Of a stretch of DNA of 64,000 nt, positions 9,908 through 43,600 are shown piece after piece. Position 1 is the stretch's first letter. Each line of letters begins with the position of its first letter. Source of the stretch: Thermomicrobiales bacterium. GTDB taxonomy: Bacteria > Chloroflexota > Chloroflexia > Thermomicrobiales > UBA6265. A program made the translations under genes and the position numbers. The DNA lies in the NCBI GenBank assembly GCA_020432165.1, contig JAGQGU010000041.1:40115-104114 (forward strand), read 5' to 3'. Below the pieces are notes generated by a model that worked only from the letters and a program-made list of their open reading frames with translations, did not search any database and was not told where the DNA came from.

Positions 9908-9934
9908 AGCCCCGGAGATAAACTCCGGGGCTAC
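9908..9934 (-). repeat. GTAG-headed hairpin (REP-like), also a bidirectional terminator
   Basis: minus strand reads GTAGC-CCCGGAG-TTTAT-CTCCGGG; 10-bp perfect stem; between the convergent stops at 9885 and 9954. Confidence 0.45.
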
Positions 9935-9953: not shown

Positions 9954-11261
9954 TTACCACCGCGGCAGATGCTCGGTCCAGTTGGGATCAACAGTCCGCT
10001 GCATGTGACCAACATCATCGCGATCACGATAGGGGATGCGCAGAAAGAGCTCGTGCTGTCGCTGCAGACCCGCGCGATCGATCTCGATACCGAGACCCGG
10101 CGCATCGGGAATCGCCAATGAACCATCCTCAAAGCGAATCTTGCCGCCGACGGCGAACTCATCGCCCGCATCCAGCCATGGATAGTGGGTATCGACATCG
10201 TAGGTGAGCGCGCGCGTCGCCGCTGCGACGTGCGTCATCGCCATCAGGCTGATGGCAAAGTGGGTGTTGCTGTGCATGCTCATACCGATGCCGAAGACTT
10301 CGCAGATACGCCCAAGCTGCGTGGTGGCGCGAAGTCCGCCCCAATAGTGATGATCGCCCAGAATCACCTGCACGGCATCGTGTTGGAGGCTCTCCGGAAT
10401 CTGGCTGAATTCGGTGACGCACATATTCGTCGCTTGCGGCAAATCGATCCCCTGAGCCAGCAAGGCTGCCCGCACCTCACCCATACCGGGAATCGAGGCC
10501 GTTGGATCCTCGAAGTACTCGAGCTCGTTTTGCAGATCTTGCGCCACCTTGATGCTTGTTTCAACGGTCCAGGCGCAATTCGGATCGATACGGATCGGCA
10601 TGTCCGGACCAAACTCAGCACGCATCTGCCGCACCGATTCGATTTCCAGCGCTGGCTCCAGCACGCCGCCCTTGAACTTAATGCTCTTGAATCCGTGGGT
10701 GTCTATCATCTGTCGGGCCTGACGGGTGACTTGCTCCGGTGTCATCGCCTCACCATATTCGTCAGGGCGTTTGTCCTCACCTTCACCACCGCCGCCAGCA
10801 TGTTTGTAGAAGAGATAGGCGCTGAAACTGACACGATCCCGCACCGGACCACCGAGCAGATCAACCACACGCACTCCGAGCGAACGACCGGTGAGGTCAA
10901 GCGCAGCCACCTCGATCGGGCTGAACGCCCGAGGGATAGTCATGCCAGGCTTACGCACATCGGTGCGGAAGTTACGCAAAATGGGATCGATACGATCATC
11001 GTCATCAGCGAAATGCCCCTCCACCACGCGCATGATCGCAGCCTGATCGGTGCTATCGATGCCAACGATATGGGGCGCAATCGCCTGCAAGTCAGCCAGG
11101 AGCGTCGTCGAATACGCTTGCTCTCCCCAGCCGGAGAGTCCGTTCTCGCCAACAAGCTCGACGATTATGCGGTTCACATAGGGCTCGTGGATACCCGGGG
11201 CGTTGCGCAAGGGGGGATCCGCCATGGCTATGGGAGTGACATTCATCTGCGTAATCTTCAT
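9954..11261 (-). CDS. gudD: glucarate dehydratase (enolase superfamily)
   Basis: 435 aa; collinear with GudD as I recall it: KFKGGVLEP, IRIDPNCAWT, YFEDPT, ATNMCVT, HSNTHFAISLMAMTHVAAA. Confidence 0.85.
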   Translation of the reverse strand: MKITQMNVTPIAMADPPLRNAPGIHEPYVNRIIVELVGENGLSGWGEQAYSTTLLADLQAIAPHIVGIDSTDQAAIMRVVEGHFADDDDRIDPILRNFRTDVRKPGMTIPRAFSPIEVAALDLTGRSLGVRVVDLLGGPVRDRVSFSAYLFYKHAGGGGEGEDKRPDEYGEAMTPEQVTRQARQMIDTHGFKSIKFKGGVLEPALEIESVRQMRAEFGPDMPIRIDPNCAWTVETSIKVAQDLQNELEYFEDPTASIPGMGEVRAALLAQGIDLPQATNMCVTEFSQIPESLQHDAVQVILGDHHYWGGLRATTQLGRICEVFGIGMSMHSNTHFAISLMAMTHVAAATRALTYDVDTHYPWLDAGDEFAVGGKIRFEDGSLAIPDAPGLGIEIDRAGLQRQHELFLRIPYRDRDDVGHMQRTVDPNWTEHLPRW

Positions 11262-11356
11262 AGGGAACTCCTGCGCTGGTTGACGGCTATTTCTGTCGTC
11301 ATGGTGCGCGTGTACACTACCGGTGTCAACAGACTTCTCGTATGGAGAAATGCACC

Positions 11357-12286
11357 ATGACCGATATCCGTACCGCCCTTCACAGCGCTCTCGCCTTCCC
11401 GATCACGCCTTTTGACGCGAACGGGAGGGTCGATCTTGACGCGGTCCGACTGAATGCCAGCTTCGTGGCGAACTCTCGCTGTGGAGCAATTGTCGCACCA
11501 AGCGGTACCGGCGAGATCTTCGCGCTCACACCAGAGGAGTCCACAGACATCGTGCGGGCAACCGTGGAAGTTGCGGGAGAGACACCGGTTATCGCCCCGG
11601 CCGGTTTTGGGCCAGTGCTGGGTGCGCGGATGGCCGCGGAAGCCGAGGCGGCTGGTGCTGCCGCGATCATGGTGGTGGCCCCCTACTATGCCAAACCGAG
11701 CGCGGATGGACTGGTGGAGTATTACAAGCAGATCGCCAGCGGCACAAGCCTGCCCATTCTTCCGTACGCTCGCGATGCTGCCCTCTTCACCCCGGCGATT
11801 CTGGAGAAGCTCTGCAACGAACTGCCACAGATCATTGCCTTCAAGGATGGTCGCGCCGATGTTCGCCTCTTTACGCAATTACGTGATCACGTAATTCACG
11901 CCTGCGGTGAGGATCGACTTATCTGGCTGGGTGGCTCCGGTGATGATCTGGTTGGCCCCTACTTTGCCACGGGTGCGGTGGGCTACACCAGCAGTCTCGC
12001 CTGCTTCTGGCCGGAAGCTTCTATGGAAATCTACGATCTCGCTGCAGCCGGTGATTACGCTGGCCTGCGCGCCTATCACGATCGCGTTGTCCGCCCGATC
12101 TATCAGATGCGTCAGCTCAAGCCCGGGTATGAAGTCAGTGTCATGAAAGTCGCGATGGAGATTTTGGGGTATGTTGCTGGTCCCAGCCGGGCACCATTGG
12201 CGAACCTGACGACTAACGAACGCCGCCAGCTCGCCGGGATTCTGGCCGAGTTGCAGGTACCGACGCGAGCTGACCGAGGGTTGTAA
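11357..12286 (+). CDS. kdgD: 5-dehydro-4-deoxyglucarate dehydratase (DapA/DHDPS family)
   Basis: start moved to ATG 11357 (GGAG upstream); blocks FPITPF, SGTGE, AFKDGRAD; divergent from gudD. Confidence 0.8.
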   Translation: MTDIRTALHSALAFPITPFDANGRVDLDAVRLNASFVANSRCGAIVAPSGTGEIFALTPEESTDIVRATVEVAGETPVIAPAGFGPVLGARMAAEAEAAGAAAIMVVAPYYAKPSADGLVEYYKQIASGTSLPILPYARDAALFTPAILEKLCNELPQIIAFKDGRADVRLFTQLRDHVIHACGEDRLIWLGGSGDDLVGPYFATGAVGYTSSLACFWPEASMEIYDLAAAGDYAGLRAYHDRVVRPIYQMRQLKPGYEVSVMKVAMEILGYVAGPSRAPLANLTTNERRQLAGILAELQVPTRADRGL

Positions 12287-12312
12287 CGGCGCTTCAGGAT
12301 AACGCCATCCTC

Positions 12313-12438
12313 GTGTAGCACCGTCCCGGTGTAGCGCCGTCCCGAAGTGGGCGGCGTCCTGGCGTCCCGAAGTGGGCGGCGTCCTGGCGTCCCGAAGTGG
12401 GCGGCGTCCTGGCGTCCCGAAGTGGACGGCGTCCTGGC
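12313..12438 (+). repeat. left REP-like arm plus 4 x 25-bp tandem array
   Basis: two GTGTAGCRCCGTCCCG heads (12313-12344), then 4 head-to-tail copies of GTCCCGAAGTGGGCGGCGTCCTGGC (12339-12438; 4th copy has 1 mismatch). Confidence 0.85.
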
Positions 12439-12453
12439 GTTCCGGCGAATCTA

Positions 12454-12972
12454 TTACCGATCATGAAACACATCCTGCCCCCAGCGCGCAGGATTCTCAT
12501 CTATATAGTTTCTGATCATATCAAGTTCACGATCGTTCCTAACGATATGATCGTGGTATCCCTCCTGCCAAAACCGATGCTCATAAGGTGTCCATCCTTG
12601 ACCTCTCACCCCATCTATATAGCCGGTGGTTGTTCTGGTCTTCCACCAATGCACTGCGTCGATTAGTGAAAGCTCTGGAAGGGACCCTGTTCCACCAAGA
12701 TTGATCCCCAAGAGTAGATGAACGTGATTCGGCATGACGACAAATGCATCCACAACAGCCTGTGGGTGACGGGGAGTTAGAGCGGCAGTGGTTTCGGTGA
12801 TCATTCGACCGGCATCGTTAAGCTGCATCGCGCCCTCTCGGACACAGCCGAACAGATGCACACGATTGTGAACACAGATGGTCACAAAATAGTAGCCCGG
12901 AGTGCGATAGTCATAATCCCGCAATCGCACCCGGCGAGTTGTGCCTGGTCGTGCATCCTCCGGACGATTCAT
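12454..12972 (-). CDS. REP-associated tyrosine transposase (IS200-like Y1/HUH transposase)
   Basis: ORF trimmed to ATG 12972 (MNRPEDA...); motifs YFVTICVHNR, HUH motif MPNHVHLLL, C-terminal Tyr block MIRNYIDENP. Confidence 0.85.
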   Translation of the reverse strand: MNRPEDARPGTTRRVRLRDYDYRTPGYYFVTICVHNRVHLFGCVREGAMQLNDAGRMITETTAALTPRHPQAVVDAFVVMPNHVHLLLGINLGGTGSLPELSLIDAVHWWKTRTTTGYIDGVRGQGWTPYEHRFWQEGYHDHIVRNDRELDMIRNYIDENPARWGQDVFHDR

Positions 12973-12976
12973 CGAG

Positions 12977-13080
12977 CCTCTCTCGCCGGCCATTTCAGGC
13001 CTCTCTCGCCGGCCATTTCAGGCCTCTCTCGCCGGCCATTTCAGGCCTCTCTCGCCGGCCATTTCAGGCCGGCGCTACAC
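12977..13080 (-). repeat. right REP-like arm plus 4 x 23-bp tandem array
   Basis: 4 perfect head-to-tail copies of CCTCTCTCGCCGGCCATTTCAGG (12977-13068), then CCGGCGCTACAC; on the minus strand the outer unit reads GTGTAG-CGCCGGCC-TGAAAT-GGCCGGCG. Confidence 0.85.
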
Positions 13081-13089
13081 AGATCGGGG

Positions 13090-14751
13090 TTACACGATTC
13101 CGGGCAAATCCAGGCCCTTCTCCCGGGCACACTCGATTGCGATCTCGTACCCGGCGTCGGCGTGACGCATGACCCCGGTAGCGGGGTCGTTCCAGAGCAC
13201 GCGACCGATACGTTCAGCGGCGGCATCGGTACCATCGCAAACGATAACCACGCCAGCGTGCTGGCTGAAGCCCATACCCACACCACCGCCGTGATGAATG
13301 CTGACCCAGGTGGCACCACTGGCGGTGTTGAGCAGCGCGTTCAGCAGCGGCCAGTCGCTGACGGCATCAGAACCATCACGCATGCCTTCGGTCTCACGGT
13401 TCGGACTGGCGACCGAGCCGCTATCGAGATGATCGCGACCGATCACGATGGGGGCCTTCAGCTCGCCATTCTTCACCATCTCGTTGAAGGCAAGCCCCAG
13501 GCGATCGCGATCACCCAGACCCACCCAGCAAATGCGTGCTGGCAGTCCCTGGAACTTGAACGCATCCCTGGCCATATCCAGCCAGCGATGCAAGTGCGGA
13601 TCGTCCGGAATCAGCTCCTTCACCTTGGCATCGGTCTTGTAGATATCCTCAGGATCGCCACTCAGCGCAACCCAGCGGAAAGGGCCAATACCCCGACAGA
13701 AGAGTGGGCGAATATAGGCAGGCACAAACCCTGGAAAATCGAAGGCGTTGCTCACGCCCTCCTCGAACGCCATTTGGCGAATGTTGTTACCATAATCGAC
13801 CGTCGGAATCCCCATCGCATGAAAATCGAGCATCGCCTGCACGTGCACTGCCATGCTCTTGCGGGACTCACGATTCACCGTGGCAGGATCGCTCACCCGC
13901 ATCTCCTCCCACTGCGCCACGGTCCAGCCAATGGGGAGATAGCCGTTCACAGGATCGTGCGCTGAAGTCTGGTCGGTGACAGCATCGGGGTGAATTCCTC
14001 GCTGAACCATCTCCGGCAAAATCTCGGCGGCATTCCCAAGTAATGCGACGGAGATCGCCTTGCCTTCGGACTTCGCCTGATTGAGAAGTTCAAGTGCGTG
14101 ATCGAGATCCTTCGCCTGCACATCGATGTACCCCGTACGCAGACGCATATCGATACGACTTTGCTGGCACTCGATCGCGAGCATGCTTGCTCCCGCCATC
14201 GTGGCCGCACGTGGCTGGGCGCCACCCATGCCACCGAGACCAGCGGTGAGTATCCAGCGTCCATCCCAACTGCCACCGTAATGCTGACGCGCCATTTCGG
14301 CAAAGGTCTCATAGGTACCCTGAACGATGCCCTGACTCCCGATATAGATCCAACTGCCGGCGGTCATCTGCCCGTACATGGCGAGACCTTTGGCATCCAG
14401 TTCATGGAAGTGCTCCCAGGTAGCCCAGTGCGGCACCAGATTGCTATTGGCAATCAGCACCCGCGGCGCATCGACATGGGTGCGAAAAACGCCGACTGGT
14501 TTGCCGCTCTGCACCAACAGCGTCTCGTTATCCTCAAGTTCCTTGAGCGTGGCAATGATCTGATCAAATGCTTGCCAATTACGTGCGGCCTTACCAATAC
14601 CGCCGTAGACCACCAGGTCTTCCGGACGCTCGGCAACGTCGGGATCGAGATTGTTCATCAGCATGCGTAGCGGCGCTTCCGTCAGCCACGATTTTGCATT
14701 CAGCGTGGTACCGGTCGGGGCGTGAATAACACGAGGTTCGGTGGCAGTCAT
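13090..14751 (-). CDS. hutU: urocanate hydratase
   Basis: 553 aa; urocanase blocks [34 protein letters not shown]. Confidence 0.95.
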
Positions 14752-25917: not shown

Positions 25918-28900
25918 TCAGGATTCCGATCCACTGCGACGGACACGGATACCAGCCAGAACCACCGCTGCGGCCACCATCACGAGCGCGCTCCCCAGCA
26001 ATGCTGTTCCGATTCCGTCATTGCCACTACCTGTGTTTGGCAGACCAGTCACAGCTTGCGTGGCCGTGGCTGTCGCTGCAGGCTCCGTGGGTGTAGCTCC
26101 CGGCTCGGTCGGTGTTGCCGCAGGCACTGTTGGGGAGGGCGATGGCGATGGTGTGGTGCAGTCCGGCGCTTCCGCAAACGTATGCGTTACGACCACCGTA
26201 CTCGGGTCACCATCCACCGGTACCCAGCCGGTGCCCGTCAGATCACCCCAGACGTTCTTCGTTATATCAATGGTTGCGTAGATGACAACCGTCTTGCCTG
26301 CGCCAATCTCCGTCACGGTGGCGTAGCCGATACCATCGACGGGTTCTACCGATAGCGTTGCGTCGGTCGTACACGTCGCTTCCGTGAATGTGATCCCCGG
26401 CACAAGAGGGGTACGGCAATCTGGAGCGTCCGCGAAGGTGTGCGTTACTACCACCGTGCTCGGGTCACCATCTACCGGTACCCAGCCGGTGCCGGTCAGG
26501 TCACCCCAGAAGTTCTCCGTTATATCGATGGTGGCGTAGATGACAACCGTCTTGCCTGCGCCAATCTCGGTCACGGTAGCGTAGCCGATACCATCGACGG
26601 GTTCTACCGATAGCGTTGCGTCGGTCGTACAGGTTGCTTCCGTGAACGTGATTCCTGGCACAAGGGGGGTACGGCAATCCGGCGCCTCCGCAAAGGTATG
26701 CGTGATTCTCACACTGCTCGGATCTCCATCTACCGGCACCCAGCCAGTACCCGTCAGATCACCCCAGACGTTCTTCGTCAGATCGATCGTTGCATAGAGG
26801 ATGTAGGTCTTCCCCGCTCCAATCTCCGTCACCGTGCCATACCCGACACCGGTGACCGGCGATGCTTCGGCCTTGGCATCCGATGTGCAGGTCGCTTCCG
26901 TGAAGGTCACGATCGGTACAACTGGCGTGCGACAATCCTTGTCAGAGATATGGAAGGTCTGACTGACAACGTGTGATTGACCATCTACCGGCATCCAACC
27001 AGTCCCGGTCAGATCACCCCACGTGTTGATATCCGGATCGATTGTTGCATAGACGGTGACGGTGCCACCGGGCACGATGTCGCCTTCCGTCGTATAGCTG
27101 ATGCCATTGCCATCCTCAGGGACGCCCACTTCTGGTGTGACATCACAATCGAAGTCGACAAACGTCACCGGTGCCGGTGTCACCGCTCCGAGAATCCTGG
27201 TGCTTGCCGTGGCACAGATCTGGCCACCTCCAGGAATCGTCGGATCGCCCGCCGTTATCGATTCAGGTCGGGAATTGTTGGTTTCATATGTGCGCATCGA
27301 GCAAGCCTGGTTGGTGATCGTATCACCAGGTTCGCCCGTCACAATGCCACTGAAGGTAAGCGTGATTGTTGCGGGTCCGGACTGATAATCGATCCAGCCA
27401 TCCATATCCACACTGGCCGGCAAAGCGGTGACAGTGAGCGTATTGCCGTTCAGCGTGTAGCACGGATCACCGGCAAACTCTTCACCATCCACCGCGCAGG
27501 TAACTGAGGCGGGATCGAGTGTGAAGCCCTCCGGGAGCGGATCCGTGAGGGTGATATCGGACCATGTATCGGAAGTCGTTGTGACGACCACGGTATAGGT
27601 CACAGTCTCGCCGGACACGGCTGTCGCCTTATCAACGGTCTTTTCGATGAAATCGCCGCCGCCTTCCGGGAAGAGCTCGTAACATACCTTGCCGCCCCAC
27701 CCGGTGGTATTGCTGGCAATGCCTGGTCCCTGACCGCTGGGTGACGAGTAAATTGTCGCACAGTTCAGATAAGAGACCGCCTCTGGATTCGGATAGGCAG
27801 CGATGGTTACGGTTCCTCGCAATGGAGTCTCACCGTAGAAATCGACCCAGAATCCATCGGTGTAGCAATCGTAGTCGTAATCGTCACCAGTGATCACTTT
27901 GATGTCGATCGTGTTGCAATCAAACGTAAATGTCCCGCTATAGTTCCAGTCATTCATCCAGCTATCGGTGAACATGTCGCCGGTATCGATGGTCCAGATA
28001 ATGATGTCGTTGTCTTCGCTATCGGTGCTCCACTCGCCAGTCTTGCTGGGGGCATTGGCATTGCACAAAATAGGAGCTGAATCTTGGGTGAATGTGCCAC
28101 CGGGATCAGCGACGAAGACAAACTCACCCGTCTCTGTCCCAGACTGTTCTGGTTCACACGTGAAGAGGAGTGTGGCTGGAATAGTGAATTGCGCCCAGTC
28201 ATCCCAGCCGCTGATATCACCTGACTGATTGAAGGTAATGGTAATGACGCCATCCGCTGCAACTGCCGTACCGATGGGCTCATCCATACCTGTACTGGAG
28301 TTGTAGCTGTAGACAAGAACCGGCGCAGTTGAAGCAACCAACTTGTCTGTCTGATATGTGATGGTAACCACGCTGCCGGCCGGTATGGTCTCAGGCACGT
28401 CAAGGTAGATCCCAATCTCCTGATCGCGGATGTCGTATTCCACCCATTCCGCTACCGGATAGCCAGTTCCGATACATTCATCGCCGTATACCGTGAAATC
28501 GTGGTAATACCATGGTGAGCCGTTGTTATAAAGCTCAAGGTACATCTCCGGGGTGTAGTTGCTGGCCGCAGTAACACAGGCATTCCAGGTGATGGGAGCA
28601 TCGAAGACCAGAGTCAATACCAGTGGGCTTGTCGTGACAGTAAAGGTATTGACCGTTGTCAGCTTGATGCTGTTTGTGGATTGATCGATGGCGACACTAA
28701 ATTCATTGGAACTGGCGCTCACCAATGAGTCGACGGAGAATGTCCCGTCGCCATATCCAACCGAGGTGAGGGAAATGAAATCTGGATCGAACCCGGGATT
28801 GGCCTGAGCGGAGAATCCAACCGGGAAGGTAAGCGTCACCGTCATCTGGCTGGTGGTGGCATCGTAGGTGAATGGTTCAAGGACGTAGCCAGAGATCTGC

Positions 28901-37560: not shown

Positions 37561-37600
37561 TCTAACAGCAGATTTGCGATGTGGTGTCATGTATAACATC

Positions 37601-37651
37601 GGTAGCAGGGGAGCTTGTCTCCCCTTGGGGCAGATAAACTGCCCCGCTACC
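37601..37651. repeat. REP-like doublet (two inverted GTAGC-headed hairpins closed by a GGTAGC/GCTACC stem)
   Basis: GGTAGC-AGGGGAG-CTTGT-CTCCCCT-T-GGGGCAG-ATAAA-CTGCCCC-GCTACC; each strand reads GGTAGC + 7-bp GC stem; lies 42 nt past the giant gene stop. Confidence 0.5.
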
Positions 37652-37692
37652 AGTCCGTGGGTGTGTCAGTACATCCGGAACGGCTCTAGCGG

Positions 37693-40600
37693 CTACGCCT
37701 GGCGGCGATTGCGCAAGGTCATGTAGCCACCCAGCAGCACTGTCGGCCAGATGAGCTGCGGCAAGACCTGCGGTGTGCCGGTATCGCTATCGCTCTCCTG
37801 ATTCAACAACCCAGCCGCATCGCCCGAGCCCGTATTCGGCGGACTCTTGGTGCCAACACAGTTGTAGACCCACACCTCGCTGAGCGTGTTGTTCTTGACC
37901 ACTACATCACCCGAGGCATTGACACTGTTCGATTGCGCGAAGCACCACTGCCCACCTACTTCAGTGAGTTTGTAGGTGCCAGCAGCCAGCATCGGGAACT
38001 GCGCGATACCATCGCCATTCGTGCTCACCTGCACCGGAGTACCGATGTAGTCGCCAGTCTTGGTATCGATCTGCTGGATCGAGAAGGCGATCGACTCTGT
38101 TGGTCGTGAGCATTCGTTCTTGTAGTCGTATCCGCGCTGACGCTCATTGATCGGGCAGTTAAACTTCTGCACCTGGATCGCTCCATGCGTCTCGTCATAG
38201 AGACTCGGCACCTGGAAGACATAGCAGGTAATCGTCGCACCCTCGCTCTGCGTGGTCGAGATTGATCCATTCACCGCCTTCTGGGTTGGAGCCTTCGGAT
38301 CCGATCCGCAGAAGAGATAGTTCAACGGAATATTGAATGGTCGTTCCGCCCAGATCGTGTACGTGCCAGCCGGAAGATCATTGAAGGTCGTCTTGCCGAC
38401 TACTCCACCATCGCCGGTAATCTGCTTGTAGCGATTGACGCCTTCTGCGCGTACGGTGATCTGATTGGTCAGCTGACCGGTGGCCATACAACTCGCCTGG
38501 AAGTCAGCGAAGCTACTCCCACTGAATCCCGGCGCGCACGTGTAACCTTCGACGTTGATGGTTACCGGTTCCGGTGCCGGAGGTTCGACGTAGTTGATCA
38601 CAATCACGGTGGTGAGCTGACCCGTGGCAACGCGAACACGAGCGGCGGAGTTGCCGGCGAGATCAGGCTTGGTTTCAGTGAGAAGGTAGATCCCTTCCCT
38701 CACCGTCAACTGGGCGCGACCTTCGGCATTGGTCGTGAAGGTGGCGTTGCTATCCGTGCTGCCATCTTCCGCAACCAGCGTGAAGGTTGCGACAGCAGGT
38801 GTACAACCGGCAGTCTGCTTCAGTTCATTGTTGCCCTGGGCACCACCCAGGAATCGGGTGCGCTCGCCTTCATCACCAGCCGGGCACTGGAACTTCTGCA
38901 CCTGCAGGGTGCCGGTATTCGCCGGTGGCTGGTTCTCGAAGACAACTCGCACTGTAGTGGTCTGACCCGGATTCACGTTGACCGTACGCGGCGTAGTGTT
39001 CAGCTTGTAGCCGAACGGTGCCTTGGTTTGAGTGAGTGTCCGTGAACCGGGTGCCAGCCCAGAGACCGTGGCCTGACCGGTGGCATCGGTGCAAATCTCC
39101 ACATTGCCAGCATTGGTCAAGGTGAAGCAGGCACCCTGGAGCGGTAGACCAACACTGTTCACCGCCTGAATCACCACCGCACCATTCTTGTAGCTGTGCG
39201 GCACCTTTACGGTTGTGGTCTCGCCATTCCTGATGGTCACCTGGATATCGGCAGCGATCTGCCAATCGGGCGATGGCGCCAACGACTCACGCAAGGTAAA
39301 GGTACCAACCGGTACATTCTCAAACGTAATCTGGGCTGGACTTACATCGGCGTTATCGCAGATGCGCTGCGTTACGGGCGTTGTGCCATCAAAGACCTGG
39401 TAGCAACCGCCAGCAACCGGATCGCCATTCGGATCGAGCGGAATCACCACCAGAGTGCCACTCTCGGCTGGCGGCTGCACCTTGGCATTCTGCACGGTAA
39501 TCTGCAGCGCACCACCGGCCGTGATCGTAACCGTACGGTTGGCGGCAACCTCGTAACCAGCAGTCGCAACGGTCTGCTTCAGCGTGTACTCGCCGGCAGG
39601 AACATTCGTGAAGCGGACACGCCCATCCACCGTCCCATCATCGGCATCGCAGAACGGACCAAATGTCGATCCGCCGGTAAGCGTGTAGCAGGCATTGGTG
39701 AGAATGAGCGTCGGCTCTTCCTTCGCCACCGTCAGCACCGTCAAACGACCAGGTCGCAGGCTCATGACGATCTCGAGATCGGTGTTCTCACCCGGATTGA
39801 TCGTGACTGTCTGCGTTGGCGCCGTCTGGAACTGGCCGGAAGGTGCCTGCTTCTGGACAACCTGATAGGTATCGGCAGCCAGATTCTCAAAGATCACCTG
39901 ACCATCGTTCGGATTGGCATCAGTAGCATCGCAGGCAGTGGCAATGGTCACGCCATTCTTGACCACGGTGTAGCAGGCATTCCCGAGCGGATTGCCATCG
40001 TCATCCATAGTGGTCACCGTCAGGCTGCCCGGCTGCGCAATGGCGGTCAACTCGAAGTTCAACTGGCTGGTCTCACCCGCTGTGATCTCGGCATTCTGAT
40101 CGGCTGGCTGCTGATAGCCGGTCGGCACCGTGCTCATGGAAACCGAATACGTATCTGGATCAAGATCAGTAATCAGCACCACACCATTGGTGCCATCAGC
40201 GTCGTTGCTATCACCATCGCAAACAGTCAACGTACCCAGCGCGAAGCACGCACCTTCCACATTGACACCGTTGGCGGTCGTGACGAGCTGCAGCGAACCG
40301 GTTTCTGGAAGAAGCGGCAGAACCAGATCGACTCCGGCGCCCTCACCCGCATCCACATGCTGATTGACCGGCACCACCACATCCACAGGACGATCAGGTG
40401 TGTACCCCTCTGCCAAACCAACTTCATACTGGCCGACCGGGATGTTACCCAGACCAATCACACCATCAATATTGTTTGTATCGTCGGCATCGCCATCGCA
40501 GAGATCAATCTGCGTCGCGCCACTGGTGGCCGTAATGCAGGCACCAACCACCGGCGTATCATCGCTGTATTTCACGGTGACATCGAGATTGCCAGTCGCA

Positions 40601-43600
40601 GGAGGTGTTTGCTCCAGTGCGATCGGCAACTGCGCGGTCTCGTCGGCCACGATGGTCACCGTCTGCGGATCAGGAACATTGAACCCGTCGGGAACGCTCG
40701 TCACCGCTATCTCGTGATCACCAGGGGTGAGATCAGTGACCGGAATCGCGCCATCAGCATCGTCGTCACAGATCTCGCTACCACCATCGACCGTGATACA
40801 CGCATCGCCAACCGGATTGCTATCGCCATCGACGAAGGTGACATCAAGGTTACCGGTTGCAGGAAGTGTCTGCTCCAGTGTGATCGGCAACTGCGCGGTC
40901 TCGTTGGCGACAATGGTCACCGTCTGCGAGTCAGGGACATCGAACCCATCGGGGACGCTCGTCACCGCTATCTCGTGATCACCAGGGGTGAGATCAGTGA
41001 CCGGAATCGTGCCATCAGCATCGTCGTCACATATTTCGTTGCCACCATCGACGATGATGCACACATCACCAACCGGATTGCTATCGCCATCCACAAACGT
41101 GATATTCAGCGCGCCGACTTCTTCCACCAGGGGCACAACGATCTCTGGCTCATCAGTCGAGACTGTCATATCTGCGGCAGGCTGGAAGCCATCGGGCGCG
41201 GAGGTCATGACCAGTTGGTGGTCACCTTCAACAACATCCGGAATCACAATCTGACCGGCGCCACCCTCATCGCAGATCTCGTCGCCGCCATCAAGGGTGT
41301 AGCAGGCATCGGCCAGCGAGTCACCGTTCACCTCGTCGACGGTATTGATCGTGAGATCAGCAGTGACCACCATGGGCGAGACCACAAAGACAACATTGGT
41401 CGAACCATCCGGGGCGATCGTCACTGTTTGGGAGACGGGATCAGCAAGGGTATAACCATCCGGCGCGGAGGTCATTGTCACCAGGTGCTCACCCGGAACA
41501 ACGCCCGTCACCTTACGCACACCATCGCCGCGATCACAGAACGGATTGCCATTATTGAATGAATAGCAGGCATTGCCAACAGGATTCGTTCCGTCCGTCG
41601 TGGAAATAGTGAATGTGGTGAGAGTTTTCGCCACAGTAAAGCTCAGGTTGCTACTTCCATCGGAGGCAACGTCAACCGTCTGCAATGCAGGATCGGGAAG
41701 ATCATGGCCAGTCGGCGCAGAAGTCATAACGACGGTGTGCTCACCGGGAGCAATGTCGTTGACGGTAAGGACGCCAGAGCCATCATCACAAACGGCTTCG
41801 CCGTTATCGATGCTGTAGCAGGCACCACCAACCGGGTTGCCATTCTTGTCGACGGTGGTGATAGCAAACGAGGTTGTGGTTGGTTGTTCAGGTACGAGAT
41901 CAATCGTTGTAGTCTCACCCGAAGTGAGCGTGACGGGTGTGGGGCCTGCCTGAATGAGCTCATCCGGTCCCTGATAGACCACGACCTCGAAATCGCCTTC
42001 CTGGAGACCCGTCATGCGAATCAGGCCAGGAGTGTCGTCGGTATCGTTGTCGCCGTTATCACAGGCGTACGGAATATCCAGCAGCCCGATAGCGCCAGCG
42101 GAGTCTATCTCCACACAAACCTGGGTATCAGAAGGAACGGTGACAGCCAGCGAAGCACCCTCGGCGACCTCTGTTGGCTCTTCCGTTGGAACCTCAGTTG
42201 GCTCTTCGGTGGGAACTTCGGTTGGCTCACCGGCAATCGGTGCGGATATGGTTACTGCCTTCTGAATATCGGCCTCAACCACAAAAGTGGTGTCAGCGGC
42301 GGTCTCATACCCATCTGGCGTGCGGGTCTCACGAATCGTTTGTTCGCCCACCGGGATATCGTAGATACCGGTCGTGCCATCGTCCGCAACAAAGCCATCT
42401 TCGTCGCATTGCTCGCCAAGCTTGTTGCCATCAGCATCGAAGACCGCGAAACAGGCACCGCCAACCGGATTGCCATTTTCATCAGTCAGATAGATGACGA
42501 TATCGCCCGTCTGTGGTGTCTCGGTGGGTGTGGCCGTGGCCTCTTCTGTTGGAGCTGCCATTACCGGTGCAATGATGGTAACCGCTTTCTGCACATCGGC
42601 TTCAACGACGAAGCTGGTATCCGGCGCAGTTTCAGAGCCATCAGGTGTCCGCGTCTGCTTAATGGTCTGCTCGCCCACCGGGATATCGTAGATACCGGTC
42701 GTGCCATCGTCCGCGACAAAGCCATCCTCATCGCACTGTTCGCCAAGTTTGTTGTTGCTGGAATCGAAAACAGCGAAGCAGGCACCACCAATCGGATTGC
42801 CATTCTCGTCCGTCAAATAGATGACGATGTCACCGGTTTGCGTGGGAACCTCAGTAGCTTCCTCGGTCGGAACCTCGGTTGGTTCTTCCGTGGCCTCTTC
42901 AGTTGGTATTTCAACCACGGTGGCATTGGACTGCACCGACTGATTCACTACCTGGTCCGCGGCCACGCTTACCGATGTGTCGGTCGCAGGCTCGTAGCCA
43001 TCGGGTGTGCGGGTTTCGTGCAGGGTGTAGTCGCCGACCGGGACTCCAAGCAGGCCGATGCGACCATCGTCGGCCACATCACCATCTTCATCGCAGGCGG
43101 AAGCAACCGAGTTGCCGTTCTCATGCTGAATCTCGAAGCAGGCACCGCCAACCGCGTTACCGTTCTCATCCTGGCGCAGCACGACCAGATCGCCCGTTTG
43201 GGTCGTCTCCGAGCTCACCTGAATGAGTCCTGCACCAGAGCTTACTTGCTGGGTATTGGCGCCAGTTTGCAGATCGATCTGCTGATCGTCCACCGGATCC
43301 TGACCGTCGGCGGGTGTGGTTTCCCGCAATGTATAGGTTCCCGATTGGAAGCCAGCCGGGAAGTTCAGCGTTGTTTGGCCATCGTTATTGCCATCATCGC
43401 TATCGCAGCCGCGACTCTGGCTGGCGCCATCCAGCACGAAACAACTCCCGCTCAGCGGATTGCCATCGGCATCCGTGCGCTGAACGGTGAGATTGCCATT
43501 ACCCAGAGCCTGAACATTCGTGACATTGCCATCGGCGTCAAAACTGATGCTATTGCTACCGGCGGAGAGATTCACGTTGCCGGTTACGCTGCCGGTATCG

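Follow-up and report, generated by a model that had tools for sequence, protein, structure and literature searches.

The locus between a kdgD-like gene and hutU in the analysed window (the whole stretch of DNA under study, 64 kb) is very probably a REPtron, i.e. a single-copy, domesticated Y1/HUH gene of the RAYT (TnpAREP) type lying between its cognate REPs, in a genome called Thermomicrobiales-type (Chloroflexota) after the source labels of homologues. The RAYT gene occupies positions 12454-12972 on the minus strand, is flanked by inverted GTAG-headed hairpins and is adjoined on each side by a short tandem array; all of the sequence features reported in the initial annotation were found where it had placed them. 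The gene for urocanate hydratase, hutU (13090-14751, minus strand; TIGR01228, 973 bits), lies immediately upstream and runs in the same direction, and a DHDPS-family, kdgD-like gene (11342-12286, plus strand; Pfam DHDPS) converges on the RAYT 3' end, so that the convergent neighbours named earlier were confirmed. The kdgD-like gene scored 237 bits against the NCBIfam model for 5-dehydro-4-deoxyglucarate dehydratase, under the 278-bit cut-off, and an exact look-up of its protein gave no match. A sigma-70-type consensus scan found no promoter-like site of the RAYT gene's own between hutU and RAYT, a terminator scan found no terminator-like site with a T-run in the same interval, and no Rfam families were found in 12000-13400. 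The RAYT gene is probably transcribed by read-through from hutU.

The RAYT gene was delimited and classified using the ORF list, Pfam, NCBIfam, an alignment with 32 homologues, AlphaFold and Foldseek. Gene callers choose an in-frame ATG at 12993, within the last repeat unit, which gives a form of 179 aa; we favour the start that gives 172 aa, because the N-termini of the homologues line up there. The 172-aa reading frame with MPNHVHLLL and MIRNYIDENP was therefore retained as originally called. NHVH occupies residues 82-85 and YIDENP residues 156-161, FWQ is also found, and the protein ends 11 residues past YIDENP. No change was seen in H83, H85, Y156 or N160 in the 32 homologues. The protein carries the HUH motif and the catalytic Tyr in Y---NP, the class 2 TnpAY1 signature as defined in PMC6006769.

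The protein scored 32.5 bits with Pfam Y1_Tnp. Among the NCBIfam models it matched NF047646 REP_Tyr_transpos at 61.3 bits (cut-off 80) and NF033573 IS200 at 26.8 bits (cut-off 55); the former was matched by 32/32 aligned family members and the latter by 17/32 only, more weakly. A profile search of the PDB ranked TnpAREP 4er8 at the top; a profile was required, as a single-sequence search of the PDB with the protein gave chance matches only. The AlphaFold model (pLDDT 89.6) has a Y1 transposase fold according to Foldseek, 4er8 being the best match by TM-score (0.60) as well as by rmsd (2.8 Å). Judged by its Y---NP motif, by the REP_Tyr_transpos score against that of IS200 and by the top PDB profile match, the predicted protein falls with the RAYTs within the Y1 family and not with IS200, as the initial annotation had proposed. 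By its motifs it is a class-2 Y1 transposase closest to Quentin subclass 2.4 / Bertels group 4, an assignment drawn from its own motifs and from inserts in its relatives, with subclass 2.7 ([ND]HVH, WQ, YI[LR][NQ]NP) also possible. The motifs listed for subclass 2.4 are NH[IFV]H, WQ and YIxNNP (Table 1, PMC6006769), and the protein has NHVH, FWQ and YIDENP. Long inserts rich in Pro, Gly, Ala and Thr follow the HUH motif in the relatives P0068, P0080, P0087, P0094 and P0110; a variable insertion between HUH and Y is a trait of subclass 2.4 (PMC6006769).

The REPs were delimited by inverted-repeat search and folding as ssDNA. The upstream REP (13053-13080, minus strand) begins 10 nt past the hutU stop codon and consists of a GTGTAG head and a perfect 8-bp hairpin, CGCCGGCC-TGAAAT-GGCCGGCG. 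The downstream REP (12329-12356, plus strand) is inverted relative to it and reads GTGTAG followed by CGCCGTCC-CGAAGT-GGGCGGCG, with one T.G mismatch or bulge. The two 28-nt arms match at 24/28 positions (86% complementary), the same count as first reported. Folded as ssDNA, the upstream arm reached -11.6 kcal/mol (z = -5.0; 0/200 shuffles as good) and the downstream arm -9.7 kcal/mol (z = -3.4; 3/200 shuffles as good). GT[AG]G-headed hairpins are thus present on both sides of the RAYT gene, which is the REPtron arrangement. The two REPs do not form a REPIN, a short-spaced inverted REP doublet: they lie 696 nt apart with the gene in between. At 37600-37652 there is a REPIN-like doublet, which belongs to another GTAGC family.

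Outside each REP lies a further copy of the head. On the left, TRF (12313-12344; period 16, 2.0 copies), inverted pairing and alignment delimited a copy without a hairpin, TCGTGTAGCACCGTCCCG, at 12311-12328 (plus strand). Its segment TCGTGTAGCACCG (12311-12323) is mirrored at 11/13 positions by TCGTGTAACCCCG at 13097-13085 on the minus strand, and this right outer head (13085-13097) overlaps the hutU stop codon (13090-13092). The extra head that the initial annotation had placed at the left is therefore present, but it is not one-sided. As the outer heads are paired on both flanks, the inverted repeat extends to ~46 nt, of which 36/46 columns are identical in the alignment. The symmetry of the flanks, each with an outer head, a REP and about four units, is left unaccounted for by the REPtron reading and was counted against it.

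In both arrays a partial REP unit is locally amplified; it consists of the loop, the 3' arm and a spacer of 8-11 nt. TRF placed the upstream array at 12976-13070 (minus strand), with 4.1 copies of the 23-nt unit CTGAAATGGCCGGCGAGAGAGGC at 100% matches, and the downstream array at 12338-12444 (plus strand), with 4.3 copies of the 25-nt unit CGTCCCGAAGTGGGCGGCGTCCTGG at 97% matches. On both sides the unit begins where the 5' arm ends and stops 8-11 nt 3' of the hairpin foot, and a complete stem exists only in the head-proximal unit, giving one full hairpin per array. A 3-nt microhomology, GGC, borders the upstream array, and a 7-nt direct repeat, CGTCCCG / CGTTCCG, the downstream one. Every upstream unit contains GAGAGG with an ATG 6 nt later; in units 1-3 this starts a 14-codon frame whose end lies in the following unit, and the final ATG shares the reading frame of the RAYT gene.

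The number of units differed between assemblies (given below as upstream/downstream units). The initial annotation had each arm amplified exactly four times, and 4/4 was indeed found in the window and in L209, but assemblies with zero mismatches also gave 3/4 (L217) and 2/2 (L210, L211 and L215, all megahit k141 contigs; zero mismatches to the window in the 2/2 contigs, including L210 and L211). Four downstream units were also present in L218 and L219. Short-read assembly could have created the arrays, or at any rate their count of four, as an artefact, and the disagreement among zero-mismatch assemblies, the five contigs that end inside the arrays and the compatibility of the 2/2 form with a 4/4 genome at the k-mer level (k = 39) all point that way. 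Against this, every assembly has at least two units per side, a 98%-identical strain in another study's assembly (L001) has the same four upstream units, and the tracts, at 95 and 107 nt, are below common read lengths. These three observations indicate that the tandem structure is real and limit the uncertainty to the number of units, and we consider the artefact explanation unlikely. Collapse of the arrays on re-assembly, which the initial annotation had named as speaking against it, was seen in part: shortened forms exist (3/4 and 2/2), and at least two units per side were always kept. A concerted biological change between 2/2 and 4/4 was not accepted, because the 2/2 contigs all stem from a single assembler setting and show no mismatch to the window. 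That both flanks count four units is most likely a coincidence.

Hairpins of the same kind accompany related genes. The homologues in L002, L125, L126, L122 and L128 are flanked by GTAG hairpins or palindromes of their own. Of the 80 metagenomic loci, 36 had a perfect GT[AG]G hairpin no more than 350 bp from the gene, mostly with a GGG/CCC foot, and across the 80 loci the density of GT[AG]G hairpins was 1.45 per kb near the gene and 0.14 per kb far from it, a difference of ~10-fold. In 13 REPs of the window's family pairing was present in 100% of cells, with changes on both sides in 4/8 stem pairs, a covariation result that is biased because the 13 REPs were picked for perfect hairpin stems. 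The downstream REP matches an intergenic copy in L078 at 27/28 positions, with no RAYT within 8 kb there, and a REP downstream of a 58%-identical homologue in L220/L221 at 25/26 positions. REP sequences are thus far more strongly conserved than the proteins (25-27 of 26-28 nt, versus protein identities of 58% for L220/L221 and 63% for the homologue in the genome of L078). Near-identical REP copies also lie on separate contigs of at least two Chloroflexia MAGs (L065/L090 and L085/L119). The hairpins belonging to the relatives, together with the near-identical REPs that occur without a RAYT in Thermomicrobiales/Chloroflexia genomes, argue that the locus is a genuine REPtron. No further copy of the window's REP was found in the 64 kb. 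A pattern scan of the genome collection for GTAGCGCCGNCCNNNNNNGGNCGGCG returned at least 118 stretches, mostly chance matches in GC-rich genomes; among the matches listed, a complementary N pair was present in only 46/120, and none of these loci had a RAYT of the window's family. Partial-REP arrays adjoin the relatives in L205 (both flanks), L169 and L158, whole REPs are repeated beside those in L154 and L194, and arrays are absent in relatives at 54-63% protein identity.

The proposed mode of action is drawn from characterised RAYTs, whose own proposed mechanism is modelled on IS200/IS605, where the hairpin is recognised with the help of a 4-nt guide lying 5' of its foot. The protein would bind the folded GTAG-headed hairpin on ssDNA, with GTAG as the guide, and would nick at a nearby CT or CA through Tyr156 to form a 5'-phosphotyrosine link; guiding of CT/CA cleavage by GTAG has been reported (PMC8266576). 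Strand transfer would come next, and REP units may be moved or multiplied in this way. The arrays may have been founded by duplications at the short direct repeats on the unit borders (GGC; CGTCCCG/CGTTCCG), and later expansion or contraction would most likely have come about by slipped-strand mispairing or unequal exchange. The main alternative for the arrays would be that the RAYT itself nicks and transfers strands, in line with the published model of BIME amplification.

That alternative regards the arrays as footprints of the RAYT acting in cis, which would nick inside the REP and 8-11 nt 3' of it and add one unit per round by strand transfer (the Ton-Hoang model). A single enzyme acting on both flanks would account for their similar copy numbers, the geometry of the unit on both sides is that of the 'iREP site plus linker site' model (PMC3333891), CT, the cleavage site of characterised RAYTs (PMC8266576), coincides with or adjoins the unit borders (GGC|CTG; TCCTGG|CG), and partial-REP arrays recur beside RAYT genes of the family, as listed above. 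The same borders, however, hold the direct microhomologies that ordinary slippage needs, and the ~10-fold concentration of REPs near RAYT genes means that gene-adjacent arrays are expected under a slippage or a RAYT model. The difference between 2/2 and 4/4, moreover, follows the assembler, all 2/2 contigs being megahit k141 products, and the k-mers of the 2/2 form (k = 39) fit a 4/4 genome. In-cis amplification by the RAYT is possible but doubtful. Reading the unit borders as CT sites was tried and rejected: the right-hand junction fits a cut after GGC and the left-hand one is ambiguous over 7 nt, so that no cleavage site can be inferred from the borders. It is very unlikely that the partial-REP arrays are direct in vivo footprints of nick-and-strand-transfer whose borders are the two cleavage sites and whose flanks change together (2/2, 4/4) in otherwise identical strains. 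If the footprint reading were true, the activity of group 4 RAYTs and their cleavage specificity could be read from sequence alone at this locus and at L205, L169 and L158; the cited literature yielded no biochemistry for RAYTs of that group.

Two further explanations concern the locus as a whole. The ends of IS200/IS605 elements are subterminal hairpins on the same strand, not inverted repeats. The 0.8 kb unit of ~46-nt terminal inverted repeats, arrays and gene might nevertheless be an autonomous IS200-like element inserted as a block at the kdgD-hutU junction, a view favoured by inverted flank similarity that reaches ~46 nt and overlaps the hutU stop codon, and by homologues whose neighbourhoods are unrelated to each other (murC-ddl, arginase, hsdM, ackA). 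We hold this to be highly improbable. The protein has Y---NP and not Y---Q, no tnpB lies beside the gene and no second Y1 gene occurs within the 64 kb window, the exact protein is encoded on eight contigs that all represent the same locus, the hairpins here are on opposite strands, as inverted repeats, and REPtrons reportedly do not move as a whole (PMC3333891). The other explanation assigns the hairpins and arrays mainly to host expression: their effect would be to stabilise the converging transcripts of hutU and the kdgD-like gene, or to attenuate them, and the upstream array would serve as a short-ORF leader throttling RAYT translation. The position of the upstream REP just past the hutU stop, that of the outer head and the downstream REP (~25 and ~43 nt, respectively, past the kdgD-like stop), the negative promoter scan ahead of the RAYT gene, the GAGAGG and ATG in each upstream unit with overlapping 14-codon frames in units 1-3, and the typical occurrence of REPs near the 3' ends of convergent genes (PMC3733652) are all consistent with this. 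The terminator-like T-run was not found in the scan, however, and relatives at 54-63% protein identity are without arrays, so that arrays are not needed for persistence of the gene; a mainly expression-related role appears improbable. Such a role is compatible with the REPtron reading.

As a REPtron the locus is an ordinary one, and its arrays are a local, assembly-dependent version of something already described. The initial annotation had considered a RAYT/REP system unexpected in such a genome, which did not hold: GTAG REPs and REPtrons have been reported in Chloroflexi, including Thermomicrobium roseum (PMC3733652), and group 4 RAYTs are common in Caldilineae (PMC5581495). Its view that tandem amplification around a RAYT is unusual was also abandoned, since variable numbers of tandem BIMEs border tnpAREP in E. 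coli, for which an amplification model exists (PMC3333891), and partial-REP arrays flank relatives of the gene. REPtrons exist even in species without dispersed REP families (PMC3733652).

The E. coli REPtron (subclass 2.2, Bertels group 2, 4ER8) likewise has a single-copy Y1/HUH gene with Y---NP, inverted GTAG-headed hairpins on both sides and a variable number of tandem units adjoining the gene. It differs in its motifs (DHLH/WE/YIHYNP in subclass 2.2, NHVH/WQ/YIDENP here) and in the repeated unit, which is a whole REP pair (BIME) in E. coli and a partial REP here. The short 8-bp stems here are also without the pair of conserved mismatches needed by E. coli TnpAREP, and the REP is rare, with no other copy in 64 kb, against hundreds in E. 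coli. With subclass 2.4 (Quentin et al. 2018), equivalent to group 4 (Bertels et al. 2017), the locus shares the motif set NH[IFV]H / WQ / YIxxNP and low-copy flanking repeats, the group 4 average being ~14 per replicon (PMC5581495); the known range of group 4 covers Cyanobacteria, Chlorobia, Caldilineae and various other phyla. In contrast to that group, the REP foot here is CGCC/GGCG and not three G-C pairs of one kind, and there is neither a double-foot REP nor a REP inserted in the gene.

The GTAG-23 sequences of T. roseum (Di Nocera et al. 2013), from a genome named for the same order, are likewise GTAG-tagged palindromes. They are described as blocks at few loci, largely clustered or reiterated and not spread out, and their target palindrome CCGSSCC(n3-4)GGSSCGG has no exact match to the hairpin here. 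The HUH/Y1 catalytic fold is shared with IS200/IS605 elements (IS608, ISDra2), but the Y---Q motif, near-identical multiple copies, the frequent tnpB, same-strand subterminal hairpins and movement of the whole element are all lacking at this locus, which with its Y---NP protein, single gene without tnpB and hairpins on opposite strands falls outside that family. The TIRYT / TIRtron systems (subclass 2.1) also have a Y1 gene between long inverted repeats (~46 nt here). A TIRYT, however, has ~238 aa and a C-terminal HTH, a tail that the 172-aa protein does not have, and the inverted repeats of TIRtrons read GGGG[AT][CG]A[CG] with no GTAG hairpin, while those found here are GTAG REPs.

The locus leaves knowledge of RAYT/REP systems unchanged. 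It adds a clean, intact REPtron of the group 4 / subclass 2.4 type from an uncultured Thermomicrobiales-type lineage, and biochemical work on a RAYT from outside the proteobacteria could make use of it. Amplification of partial-REP units is seen repeatedly next to RAYT genes of this family. For annotation, genes of this kind are mostly labelled 'transposase', and the 179 aa call at this locus begins within a repeat unit.

The RAYT ORF (12454-12972, minus strand) encodes 172 aa with the motifs MPNHVHLLL and MIRNYIDENP. The gene caller gave a 179 aa version starting at an ATG within the last repeat unit; the 172 aa start agrees with the N-termini of aligned homologues. The protein matched Y1_Tnp in Pfam, and in NCBIfam it scored higher for REP_Tyr_transpos (61 bits) than for IS200 (27 bits), both under their respective cut-offs. 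All 32 aligned homologues matched the NCBIfam RAYT model, and H83, H85, Y156 and N160 were invariant among them. The motif set NHVH / WQ / YIDENP carries the class 2 signature Y---NP and appears to fit the subclass 2.4 row in Table 1 of Quentin et al. 2018, equivalent to Bertels group 4 (PMC6006769). TnpAREP 4er8 ranked first in a profile search of the PDB. The AlphaFold model (pLDDT 89.6) gave structure matches to Y1 transposases only, 4er8 having the top TM-score (0.60) and, by a wide margin, the lowest rmsd (2.8 Å). Neither tnpB nor a second Y1 gene was found in the 64 kb window. The RAYT/REP identification made in the initial annotation was correct, as supported by the motifs, the profile ranking, the PDB profile and fold searches and the flanking hairpins.

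The two neighbouring genes converge, with the RAYT gene between them, and profile searches confirmed this setting as first described, with hutU at 973 bits and the DHDPS-family kdgD-like gene under the NCBIfam cut-off. Scanning with a sigma-70-type consensus found no promoter-like site before the RAYT gene, and no terminator-like site was found by scan after hutU, so that read-through from hutU is the likely source of its expression, judging from sequence.

Tandem Repeats Finder placed the downstream array at 12338-12444 (period 25, 4.3 copies, 97% matches), the upstream array at 12976-13070 (period 23, 4.1 copies, 100% matches) and a third, head array at 12313-12344 (period 16, 2.0 copies). 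The 28 nt arms (12329-12356 and 13053-13080) were 86% complementary and, as single-stranded DNA, folded at -11.6 kcal/mol (z = -5.0) on the right and -9.7 kcal/mol (z = -3.4) on the left. Because only the head-proximal unit of either array formed a complete stem in this folding, each flank holds one complete REP and about three headless partial units. The ORF, arrays, inverted arms and hairpins of the initial annotation were thus all recovered in place, while its "extra head", assigned to the left flank only, proved to have a mirror copy. These outer heads, of the GTGTA(G/A)C type and one per flank, are TCGTGTAGCACCG at 12311-12323 (plus strand) and TCGTGTAACCCCG at 13097-13085 (minus strand), 11/13 identical, and they extend the flank inverted repeat to ~46 nt (36/46 identical, counted manually on the alignment). 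The right outer head overlaps the hutU stop codon, and the last two hutU codons fall within the repeat. ACGGCGCTTCA at 12286-12296, directly after the kdgD-like stop codon, showed 91% complementarity with the left REP head (TGTAGCGCCGT) and could be either a head that has degenerated in inverted orientation or a chance match.

Similar hairpins accompany homologues from Thermomicrobiales MAGs. Three GTAG-CGCC hairpins flank a gene with 63% protein identity between murC and ddl (L002), two head-out doublets of GTAG-GGAAGGGG flank P0034 (L125, 50%), one doublet of GTAG-TCTCGGGC flanks P0010 (L126, 52%), and long GTAG-ended palindromes flank P0022 and P0021 (L122 and L128, 49%). At 36 of 80 metagenomic RAYT-family loci, a perfect GT[AG]G hairpin lay no more than 350 bp from the gene, and hairpin density was 1.45 per kb near the gene versus 0.14 per kb beyond 600 bp. 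The REP downstream of a 58%-identical homologue (L220 957-985; L221 1585-1612) matched the window left REP at 25/26 positions. Upstream of that homologue (L221 860-890), and also at L002 9848-9868, lies the hairpin CGCTGGCC-TGAAAT-GGCCGGCG, near-identical to the window upstream REP stem-loop, with the same loop and without the GTAG head; in the homologous murC-ddl REPtron it overlaps the murC stop codon. Pairing was kept in every cell of 13 window-family REPs, with both-sided changes at 4/8 stem positions, a count biased by their having been picked for perfect stems. The P0021 gene is also flanked by three copies of a composite element of ~110-125 nt with GTAGGCCCGTCC... and ...GGGTCTAC at its ends (L128 9760-9990 and 10675-10790).

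No further copies of the window REP occur in the 64 kb window. Among the matches listed in a genome-collection scan, which covered genomes other than that of the window, an intergenic REP at L078 5308-5335, on another contig of the Thermomicrobiales MAG with the 63%-identical homologue, matched the window downstream REP at 27/28 positions, with no RAYT within 8 kb; in two Chloroflexia MAGs, copies of GTAGCGCCGACC...GGTCGGCG were listed on different contigs. In relatives, therefore, the REP family is dispersed. REP sequence is far more conserved than protein (25/26 and 27/28 where RAYTs are 58-63% identical). In the host genome the REP is rare at best, in agreement with the low copy number of group 4 flanking 16-mers, which average ~14 copies per replicon (PMC5581495). 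The same genome-collection scan, run with a 26-nt pattern, also found GTAGCGCCGGCCCCCYGTGGCCGGCG on at least five contigs (L028, L038, L044, L068, L073) of one Planctomycetales MAG, CAYLLT01; there appears to be, in this unrelated phylum, a true dispersed family of REPs whose stem is similar.

The taxonomic surprise initially attached to the locus is unsupported. A 2013 study had already described GTAG REPs from Chloroflexi, including Thermomicrobium roseum GTAG-23 elements grouped in blocks at a few loci (PMC3733652), and group 4 RAYTs occur commonly in Cyanobacteria, Chlorobia and Caldilineae (PMC5581495). REPtrons are known from species without dispersed REP families, and REP clusters can be reiterated in tandem together with flanking DNA (PMC3733652). 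Nor is amplification as such unusual, as had been claimed: E. coli tnpAREP is bordered by tandem BIMEs of variable number (PMC3333891), and comparable arrays adjoin RAYT genes of family relatives. These comprise ~3 units on both flanks (L205 1265-1330 and 2132-2210), a perfect 4.2-copy repeat of a 13-nt head fragment (L169 1499-1553), three arm-plus-loop units with a full REP at the end (L158 1599-1668), and repeats with the whole REP inside the unit (four 68-nt units at L154 406-680; 49 nt x 2.6 in L194). The locus belongs to an already described kind of REPtron, and only the amplification of partial rather than whole REP units on both sides sets it apart.

Array copy number was not reproducible between assemblies, and the "exactly four-fold" symmetry first proposed found no support. 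Upstream/downstream units numbered 4/4 in the window and in the 100%-identical L209, 3/4 in L217, at least 3/4 in L218, at least 2/4 in L219, 4/at least 2 in L001 (a 98%-identical strain from another study) and 2/2 in three megahit k141 contigs (L210, L211 (= L216) and L215). Five contigs ended within an array. Assembler collapse can explain the 2/2 form, since every 39-mer in it also occurs in the 4/4 sequence, which no longer holds for 49-mers and above; L210 and L211 had zero mismatches to the window. Collapse of the arrays on re-assembly, named initially as a refuting outcome, was partly borne out, with 2/2 in the megahit contigs and 4/4 in L209, though the 2/2 form may instead be a true polymorphism.

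By analogy with characterised RAYTs, the protein would bind the folded REP on single-stranded DNA, GTAG would guide cleavage at CT or CA, as it does in those enzymes (PMC8266576), and strand transfer would follow (PMC3333891). The published amplification model adds one unit through two nicks, one within the REP and the other at a linker site on its 3' side (PMC3333891). The unit geometry agrees with this model, making RAYT nicking and strand transfer a candidate origin of the arrays. Slipped-strand mispairing would instead act at the short direct-repeat microhomologies that bound them: upstream, GGC stands before the first 23-nt unit and at the end of every unit; downstream, CGTCCCG opens each 25-nt unit, with CGTTCCG after the last. 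We lean towards slippage for the expansions and assign the founding event to neither candidate.

The window also holds a second hairpin family, GTAGC-N-GGGGNAG-YTTRT-CTNCCCC, with no RAYT for it in the window. It occurs as a singlet at 9908-9934 (minus strand), just 3' of an ORF ending at 9954, and as a head-out doublet, REPIN-like in appearance, at 37600-37652; a similar unit follows ftsZ at L002 ~13246. Two large tandem repeats were seen at 26158-26850 (258 nt x 2.7, 85% identity) and 40576-41102 (261 nt x 2.0, 88% identity).
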